Virus record (IMG/VR): IMGVR_UViG_3300045988_013481
Coordinates: 1-5,360 of that record
DNA from: a virus
Length of the DNA stretch: 5,360 bases
Direction: 5' to 3' (one strand)
This document shows, piece by piece, positions 4,707 through 4,767 of the stretch; the first letter of the stretch is position 1; every line of letters begins with the position of its first letter. The notes below the pieces were generated by a model, which saw only the letters and a list, made by a program, of their open reading frames with translations, was not told the origin of the DNA and ran no database searches. The position numbers and the translations under genes are program-made.

Positions 4707-4715
4707 TTTTCCACA
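4707..4715 (+). promoter_or_regulatory. Exact match to the relaxed DnaA box TTWTNCACA (TTTTCCACA)
   Basis: Seen directly in the sequence. It is immediately followed by GCCC and the CTA trinucleotide run. Confidence 0.4.
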
Positions 4716-4767
4716 GCCCCTACTACTACGGCTACAACAAGTTATATATAATAAGCGAAAATAAATA
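4716..4767 (-). promoter_or_regulatory. GC cluster + DnaA-trio-like trinucleotide run + AT-rich tract (candidate unwinding element)
   Basis: The + strand reads GCCC | CTA CTA CTA CGG CTA CAA CAA (4720-4740) | GTTATATATAATAAGCGAAAATAAATA (4 G/C in 27 nt). The minus strand therefore carries TAG (3'-GAT-5') repeats 5' of TGTGGAAAA. Confidence 0.35.

Follow-up and report, generated by a model that had tools for sequence, protein, structure and literature searches.

A basal unwinding system (BUS) that includes DnaA boxes 6 and 7 has reportedly been described by Richardson (2016/2019) and Pelliciari (2021). In bacterial oriC this system is made up of DnaA boxes, a GC cluster, DnaA-trios and an AT-rich region (PMC8287927), and 57% of the bacterial systems carry a second tandem box upstream (PMC8287927); the C. 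difficile trio reads CTACTACTATTACTACTA (PMC7561715). Here we describe an element of the same build in a stretch of 5,360 nucleotides of viral DNA (positions 1 to 5,360 of IMG/VR record IMGVR_UViG_3300045988_013481; this whole stretch is hereafter the window), which belongs to a gokushovirus of the Microviridae, and where the element adjoins a phiX174-type Rep origin. The likeness to the BUS lies in the parts, their order, orientation and spacing, and a 29-nt core is identical to a Ruminococcus flavefaciens-type oriC. The phage element differs in that it sits in a 5.3-kb single-stranded DNA (ssDNA) phage and not beside dnaA/dnaN, in that its trios are followed by a CAACAAGT motif and by the Rep-origin hairpin, and in that it is known from sequence.

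The second closest system is the viral-strand origin of phiX174, where gpA nicks CAACTTG/ATA (the slash marks the nick here and below) and GACCAC stands 17 nt further on. The window hairpin similarly presents CTTCTTG/AT, 17 nt and GACAC, and its Rep carries the two-tyrosine motif YVAGYVTKK. In contrast, the phiX174 origin is devoid of a nick motif in a hairpin loop, of an antisense position in non-coding DNA and of a flanking DnaA module, all of which are found in the gokushovirus. P1 oriR, pSC101, F, RK2 and R6K are DnaA-assisted theta replicons with iteron-binding Rep proteins. They resemble the phage in being mobile replicons with host DnaA boxes beside the site of their own initiator, but the phage replicon is of the rolling-circle HUH kind and has an entire unwinding module of chromosomal type, and we know of no trio run described in any of them. 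The ABC primosome of Masai and Arai reportedly uses the A site, a DnaA-box hairpin on ssDNA in which the box is needed in the duplex stem; it has in common with our locus a DnaA box in a single-stranded replicon, but most of the phage relatives present direct repeats only, and their module flips strand between lineages. DnaA-box clusters of the datA type, which are titration sites, are likewise dense and located outside oriC, and as far as we know they have no GC cluster, trio run or unwinding element.

All the components that an earlier note on this DNA had proposed are present in the window, namely TTTTCCACA at 4707-4715, GCCC at 4716-4719, CTA CTA CTA CGG CTA CAA CAA at 4720-4740 and a 27-nt tract with 4 G/C at 4741-4767. 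Since all genes are on the - strand, the gene-sense reading is also the one given in that note, an AT-rich stretch followed by TTG TTG TAG CCG TAG TAG TAG, GGGC and TGTGGAAAA. A strict pattern (TTWTNCACA, 0-16 nt, at least three CTA) was found once in the window, whereas 2,000 genome shuffles that preserved dinucleotides and 20,000 shuffles of the non-coding region contained no instance of it; this is the control that the note had called for, and the box-trio pattern is not a chance occurrence. Two features had escaped the note. The module box closes an array of 11 DnaA-box-like 9-mers in 4522-4715, mostly TTTTCAACA (six exact copies observed against 0.07 expected; TTTCAAC occurs nine times on the + strand, all within 4523-4706), and a perfect 15-bp stem-loop (4767-4805) comes directly after the AT-rich tract. 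In our reading the module is the core of a replication-origin region of about 290 bp (4522-4810), composed as follows.

4522-4653, + strand: eight host-type DnaA-box variants, TTTTCAACA at 4522, 4550, 4559, 4571, 4633 and 4645, GTTTCAACA at 4614 and ATTTCAACA at 4622
4534-4542, - strand: inverted consensus DnaA box TTTTCCACA, found in only some relatives
4699-4715, + strand: tandem box pair, TTTTCAAC (4699-4706) abutting TTTTCCACA (4707-4715), the same abutting tandem as in bacterial origins
4716-4719, + strand: 4-bp GC cluster GCCC, in the place where bacterial origins have NNCC
4720-4734, - strand: DnaA-trio run TAG CCG TAG TAG TAG, with three 3'-GAT-5' trios at the GC cluster, one non-trio and one trio
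4735-4744, no strand assigned: invariant motif CAACAAGTTA (- strand TAACTTGTTG), similar to a Rep nick site and without a downstream GACAC; compare the phiMH2K hairpin loop CTACTTGTTGTAA
4741-4766, no strand assigned: AT-rich tract, the presumed unwinding element, placed like the AT-rich region of bacterial origins
4767-4810, + strand: phiX174-type Rep origin, with stem 4767-4781, loop CTTCTTGAT at 4782-4790, stem 4791-4805 and GACAC at 4806-4810; predicted nick between G4788 and A4789

The box at 4707-4715 differs from TTATCCACA by one mismatch (up to two are allowed in a BUS) and fits TTWTNCACA. Together with it the window holds a second tandem box, a 4-bp GC cluster within the 0-16 bp spacer, three consensus trios next to that cluster and an AT-rich region, and it departs from the bacterial system in location, the element being placed between VP4 and the late-gene promoter of a circular gokushovirus genome instead of in a chromosomal oriC. 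When one genome per bacterial species was scanned for three closely spaced copies of TGTTGAAA, the densest matches were contigs of Ruminococcus and Oscillospiraceae. Five of these loci (L098, L107, L130, L138 and L161) displayed 15-22 TTTC[A/C]ACA boxes within 600 bp and 23-35 per 8-kb stretch. The genes flanking the arrays in L098, L107, L138 and L161 were dnaA and dnaN by Pfam, and the arrays are therefore chromosome origins, with 20-35 such boxes in the Ruminococcus/Oscillospiraceae. The array of L138 ends in TTTTCCACA, GCCC, CTACTACTACTACTA and an AT-rich stretch, which is the module of the phage, and that of L161 in TTTTCAACAGTTTCAACA, CCCC, five CTA and an AT-rich stretch; consecutive trios in the host origins numbered 4-5. 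The abutting tandem pair was also seen in other bacterial origins (such as L445, L450 and L209).

The match extends to the letter. The 29 nt at 4700-4728 (TTTCAACTTTTCCACAGCCCCTACTACTA) occur verbatim in six bacterial contigs, all beside dnaA and one of them from Ruminococcus flavefaciens, and the core match is located between dnaA and dnaN in R. flavefaciens and other Oscillospiraceae/Clostridia; the search used a degenerate pattern with 24 specified bases, and chance alone would yield about 0.004 matches to it in the collection. With the wider pattern TTTCMACA-NNCC-CTACTACTA we found at least 120 bacterial loci spanning many phyla (Streptomyces, cyanobacteria, Deinococcus, Acidobacteriota, Clostridia), and in 111 of the 120 the 8-kb stretch included a homologue of dnaA, of dnaN or of both. 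In the rows inspected, the motif lay between dnaA and dnaN and read toward dnaN, and it corresponds to the BUS in the sense of Pelliciari et al. (PMC8287927). The phage module has the same orientation as these 111 loci, which settles the orientation empirically. The proposed likeness to the oriC unwinding module is strongly supported, in both arrangement and orientation, by real chromosome origins. We also considered the capture of a long piece of host oriC and rejected it: BLAST similarity was confined to the boxes and the module, with a best match of 35 of 37 nt.

The boxes point to the same hosts. TTTTCAACA is the dominant 9-mer of Oscillospiraceae oriC, where it is used far more than TTTTCCACA, and the spectrum of box variants in 126 module-bearing phage genomes (A 695, C 188, T 17, G 17) can be set beside that of Oscillospiraceae origins (A 236, C 47, T 6, G 2). 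These results suggest that the phage uses the host initiator DnaA and that its host is probably of the Ruminococcus type. In pattern-chosen loci with TTTTCAACA origins (L098, L107, L130, L138, L161, L207, L208, L210, L221 and L235), the DnaA recognition helix reads RDH-STIVY or RDH-STVVY, not RDH-TTV(L/M)H, and the changes fall at positions equivalent to E. coli T435 and H439, which are among the base-contacting residues of DnaA (PMC7561715). Dense arrays of TTTCAACA-type boxes were also observed in L114, L142, L149 and L176 (Mesoaciditoga/Athalassotoga) and in L120 (Anaerolineae), L114 carrying TTTCAACA, GTAC and four CTA; since these lineages are unrelated, the box dialect is not unique to Oscillospiraceae. 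One contig binned as Alistipes (L447, CAYWPN010000018.1) encodes a DnaA 88% identical to a Ruminococcus one and has a Ruminococcus-type origin, and is probably mis-binned.

The arrangement of box and trios is conserved in relatives of the phage. We fetched 80 capsid relatives, in 36 of which the region was complete. In sense-strand reading these 36 show an AT-rich stretch, C TTG TTG TAG (TAG/CCG/TCG/CAG) TAG TAG TAG, four bases (mostly GGGC, GGAG or GCAC), TGT[G/T]GAAA[A/T] and GTTGAA[A/T]A, with 3-6 consecutive TAG copies. The proximal box is TGTGGAAAA in 19 and the host variant TGTTGAAA[A/T] in 15 of them; as it alternates between two forms, whatever binds it accepts both. Relatives with at least 80% capsid identity, and also L043 (51%), carry 5-10 GTTGAAA boxes in a single cluster and a single orientation; such boxes were not found in environmental gokushoviruses at about 47% capsid identity, and the module was absent from 44 environmental gokushoviruses. 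The stretch 4550-4754 is common to about 40 GenBank gokushoviruses whose genomes are otherwise diverged (70-77% identity). A scan of viral contigs for the box, spacer and three CTA detected at least 75 microvirus contigs with capsids 37-88% identical to that of the window, and in all the module is kept in more than 100 gut gokushovirus genomes. Relative to the genes, its orientation is reversed in 10 of the 75 contigs (among the matches listed) and in KX513864, KT264784, MT121961 and KT264800; inverted modules are found between VP2 and VP4, with the AT-rich end still facing the hairpin.

A second, distant microvirus lineage has a module in another dialect. In L418 and L420, two 4.7-kb contigs with capsids 37% identical, the module was observed between the VP4 stop and a promoter. 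It comprises 4-5 perfect TTATCCACA boxes with a tandem TTTCCACA (TTTCCACATTTCCACA tandem), ATGC, 5-6 CTA and an AT-rich stretch; no canonical hairpin was detected in either contig by the criteria used. That two lineages with different box dialects share one layout is a strong argument that the ligand is host DnaA; it counts strongly against chance and against an iteron specific to the phage.

The stem-loop is the other constant of the locus. In the clade its loop is yTnCTTGAT, and the G of CTTG stands 17-18 nt from GACAC in 136 of 136 scored hairpins; the annotated viral-strand origin of phiX174 is AACTTG/ATATTAATAACACTATA-GACCAC, also with 17 nt. Gokushoviruses that are free of the module possess a conserved stem-loop with the loop CTACTTGAT and then GACAC, and Chlamydia phage Chp2 has a similar one with the loop TCTACTTGAT, in which the GACAC flank was not seen. 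This phiX174-like spacing, together with a two-tyrosine Rep, makes the stem-loop the best candidate for the nick site of VP4. Of the 91 genomes (4.2-6.2 kb) in which module and hairpin were both present, 87 have the hairpin on the AT-rich side of the trio run, 31-300 nt past it, when by our estimate about 5% would be expected from random placement in one direction in a 5.5-kb circle, and the linkage outlasts inversion of the module relative to the genes. The earlier note had proposed that the trio-bearing strand is the packaged one that enters the cell. This idea found no support, because the module is inverted in the contigs and in the four GenBank genomes mentioned above, and because the phiX174-type Rep origin lies opposite both the trios and the genes. 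Inversion of the module and a Rep origin on the other strand rather indicate an action on the duplex replicative form.

Opening of the phage origin by host DnaA, bound to the duplex replicative form, is in our view probable on this sequence evidence; it would enable nicking by VP4. The boxes of the double-stranded replicative form would be bound by host DnaA, and DnaA-ATP, starting at the tandem boxes, would oligomerise along the TAG trios on the - strand and melt the AT-rich tract. The adjacent origin hairpin would then become single-stranded on the other strand, and the HUH nuclease VP4 would nick the exposed hairpin and start rolling-circle replication; loading of the host helicase could also occur. 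If true, replication of the phage would depend on the host initiator and be timed by it. The wider proposal is that the chromosomal origin-opening module of the host was copied and fused to a phiX174-type rolling-circle origin at least twice independently, in a large clade of gokushoviruses from the mammalian gut and in one or more other microvirus lineages. HUH initiation would thereby have become DnaA-dependent, and the gokushovirus clade, with its hairpin antisense, might also package the non-coding strand. We advance this proposal tentatively, as one slightly less likely than not; packaging of the non-coding strand would be unprecedented in Microviridae.

Several observations weigh against opening by DnaA for VP4. 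The functional steps are read entirely from sequence mimicry and linkage, and a module of this kind is missing from most microviruses, which replicate nonetheless. Module and hairpin are 29 to about 230 nt apart, and in many genomes GC-rich palindromes have been inserted between them, so that direct mechanical coupling is not obligatory. Neither is the relative orientation of the two fixed (83 versus 8 genomes, the hairpin being opposite the trio strand in 83 of 91), and in 17 of 108 genomes the hairpin was not found by strict criteria. The antisense position of the hairpin does not fit either. In phiX174 the nick motif is on the gene-sense, packaged strand, whereas in the window it is on the opposite one; in module-bearing contigs, all 66 hairpins detected are antisense to the genes, against a sense-strand position in all 29 module-free contigs and in Chp2. 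If the hairpin is the nick site, the clade may displace and package the non-coding strand. As for the boxes, TTTTCAACA departs from TTWTNCACA at position 6, and we regard it as a DnaA box because of its enrichment in Oscillospiraceae origins and the co-occurring change in the DnaA recognition helix, in loci that were selected by pattern.

The last point that does not fit is the CAACAAGT motif. The CAA CAA that the earlier note had aligned with the trios probably does not belong to them, since on the trio strand it reads 3'-GTT-5' and is without the central adenine that defines a trio. It is part of an invariant, phage-specific motif, CAACAAGT(TA), that directly follows the trio run in every module-bearing phage inspected, whichever the orientation of the module; the host origins examined showed no such motif behind their CTA run. 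A nick site abutting the trios in the sense strand, AACTTG/TTGTAG, was favoured at first on the grounds that CTTGWTGTAR is kept in other gokushoviruses and that phiMH2K has CTACTTGTTGTAA. We downgraded this candidate because the motif moves with the inverting module, there is no GACAC at +17 and a full phiX-type origin hairpin stands 29 nt away.

Other functions can be proposed for the same sequences. The region could be a mini-chromosome origin at which DnaA opens the DNA and the host helicase and primosome are loaded, with theta replication of the replicative form and no Rep nicking. In its favour are the likeness to a bacterial unwinding module in sequence features, a box density equal to that of half an oriC and the variable distance to the Rep hairpin, and also the TnnT repeats that regular trios create on the opposite strand. 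Repeats of this kind are said to be the recognition pattern of DnaD in B. subtilis. Nevertheless, such an origin would not need the AT-rich side to face the Rep hairpin, as it does in 87 of 91 genomes; attachment of the invariant CAACAAGT to the trios suggests a link with phage functions, and no partition or copy-control functions were seen among the window open reading frames (ORFs). We hold theta replication to be rather unlikely; if it did take place, it would allow plasmid-like persistence or amplification of the replicative form. It is unlikely, too, that the array is a DnaA sink or regulator, by which the multicopy replicative form would titrate host DnaA, with a block of host initiation or a change in DnaA-regulated genes as the result, or by which DnaA would regulate transcription from the adjacent phage promoter. 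Plasmid-borne DnaA-box clusters perturb initiation in Bacillus, each genome copy of the phage brings 9-11 boxes, and a perfect promoter stands 120 nt from the array. However, neither titration nor promoter control requires a GC cluster, phased trios or an AT-rich tract, the very parts that are best conserved and that occur verbatim in host origins, and in genomes of the inverted type the module is not beside the same promoter.

An action of the trios on the entering single strand, with DnaA guided onto packaged ssDNA to open or prime complementary-strand synthesis in the manner of the ABC primosome, appears quite improbable to us. In E. coli, primosome assembly on ssDNA can take place at DnaA-box hairpins, and the inverted box at 4534-4542 could pair with direct boxes in ssDNA, but most relatives have no inverted box, so that their boxes would stay single-stranded; moreover, inversion of the module in 10 of 75 contigs (among the matches listed) and a phiX-type origin opposite the trios in 83 of 91 genomes run counter to it. 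Finally, the repeats could be iterons or sites for a phage protein (VP4 or the product of a small ORF), or boxes of the Spo0A type, the DnaA likeness being a coincidence. The 0A box is TGTCGAA, and TGTTGAAA is one mismatch from it as well as from the DnaA box; iterons, in turn, are often found beside the nick site of rolling-circle replicons. Against this, the same 9-mer and the 29-nt module are present in host chromosome origins, in which phage proteins play no part, and the second microvirus lineage has perfect TTATCCACA boxes in the same trio layout. Plasmid iterons are element-specific repeats with an initiator of their own, which is not what we find here: no iteron-binding protein was detected, and three small ORFs had no match in PHROGs. 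Spo0A boxes were rejected in addition because the 0A-like variant TTTCGACA is rare (17 of 917) and equal in number to the T variant. We give such a coincidence hardly any credence, and opening of the replicative form by DnaA for VP4 is the explanation that we retain.

An open-literature search at title and abstract level yielded no description of such a module in any microvirus, in agreement with the earlier note. DnaA boxes beside plasmid and phage theta origins were already known. What appears to be new is the fusion, in an ssDNA phage, of a rolling-circle origin with an entire chromosomal unwinding module; we know of no other rolling-circle ssDNA phage that has such a module. If the proposed mechanism is true, two modes of initiation that are usually alternatives would be linked, and phage replication would be tied to the initiation potential of the host, a point that bears on the persistent or carrier-state lifestyle that gokushoviruses are suspected to have. 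To our knowledge, the hosts of these abundant gut microviruses have not been identified, and the module provides a sequence-based call to Ruminococcus/Oscillospiraceae; the DnaA-box dialect of a phage may be of general use in host calling. For DnaA biochemistry the phages further offer natural BUS variants that are minimal and highly regular, with as many as six perfect trios; they also expose the TTTTCAACA dialect of Oscillospiraceae and its co-occurrence with changes in the DnaA recognition helix, and they raise the testable question of which strand the module-bearing phages package.

With regard to the genome, the 73 bases at the start of the window are identical to the 73 at its end, which indicates a circular genome of 5,287 nt. 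The nearest records are gokushoviruses of dog, pig and human faeces (84-92% identity). Every gene is on the - strand, including those for the major capsid protein VP1 (1390-3021), the pilot protein VP2, VP3 and VP5 and some small ORFs, and the sole long non-coding region is 4347-4809. A + strand ORF at 4535-4657 was dismissed as a by-product of the repeats, whose spacing is not in multiples of three and varies between relatives. The remaining features are these.

545 to 1, then 5287 to 4813 across the circular junction, - strand: Rep/VP4, 340 aa, with the motifs FLTLT, HHH and YVAGYVTKK
4372-4400, - strand: promoter, a perfect TTGACA-17-TATAAT with a TG extension, which drives the downstream genes
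4440-4479, no strand assigned: imperfect GC-rich hairpin, located between the promoter and the array of boxes

HHH and the phiX A-type two-tyrosine motif YVAGYVTKK identify VP4 as an HUH Rep. The promoter is followed by strong Shine-Dalgarno sequences, which fits a Firmicutes-type host, and a terminator scan revealed no intrinsic terminator in the region. A search of bacterial genomes with the capsid protein, aimed at a prophage or host, yielded nothing beyond distant relatives and short contigs. One bacterial contig of 91 kb (L081, URNX01000007.1, UMGS1182) has, close to its end, a gokushovirus capsid gene (46% identity) and a canonical origin hairpin, which may represent an integrated microvirus. 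Base-composition skew was tried as a guide to the packaged strand and proved not diagnostic, the sense-strand AT skew being +0.33 in the window, +0.29 in phiMH2K and -0.03 in Chp2. The sense strand of the window is A-rich and T-poor (A 34%, T 17%), the AT skew ranges from +0.29 to +0.34 in the clade, and its mean in environmental gokushoviruses is +0.03.

The hairpin at 4440-4479 may be a complementary-strand origin. In many relatives, alternating CG/TG palindromes (CGTGCGTGCGCGTTTCGCGCGTGCGTG) separate the module from the Rep hairpin, and for these palindromes, as for the GC-rich hairpin, a role as complementary-strand origins or as Z-DNA/cruciform elements is possible. The stretch 4436-4534 is 88-94% identical in otherwise unrelated gokushoviruses (MG945657, KT264788 and KT264789).

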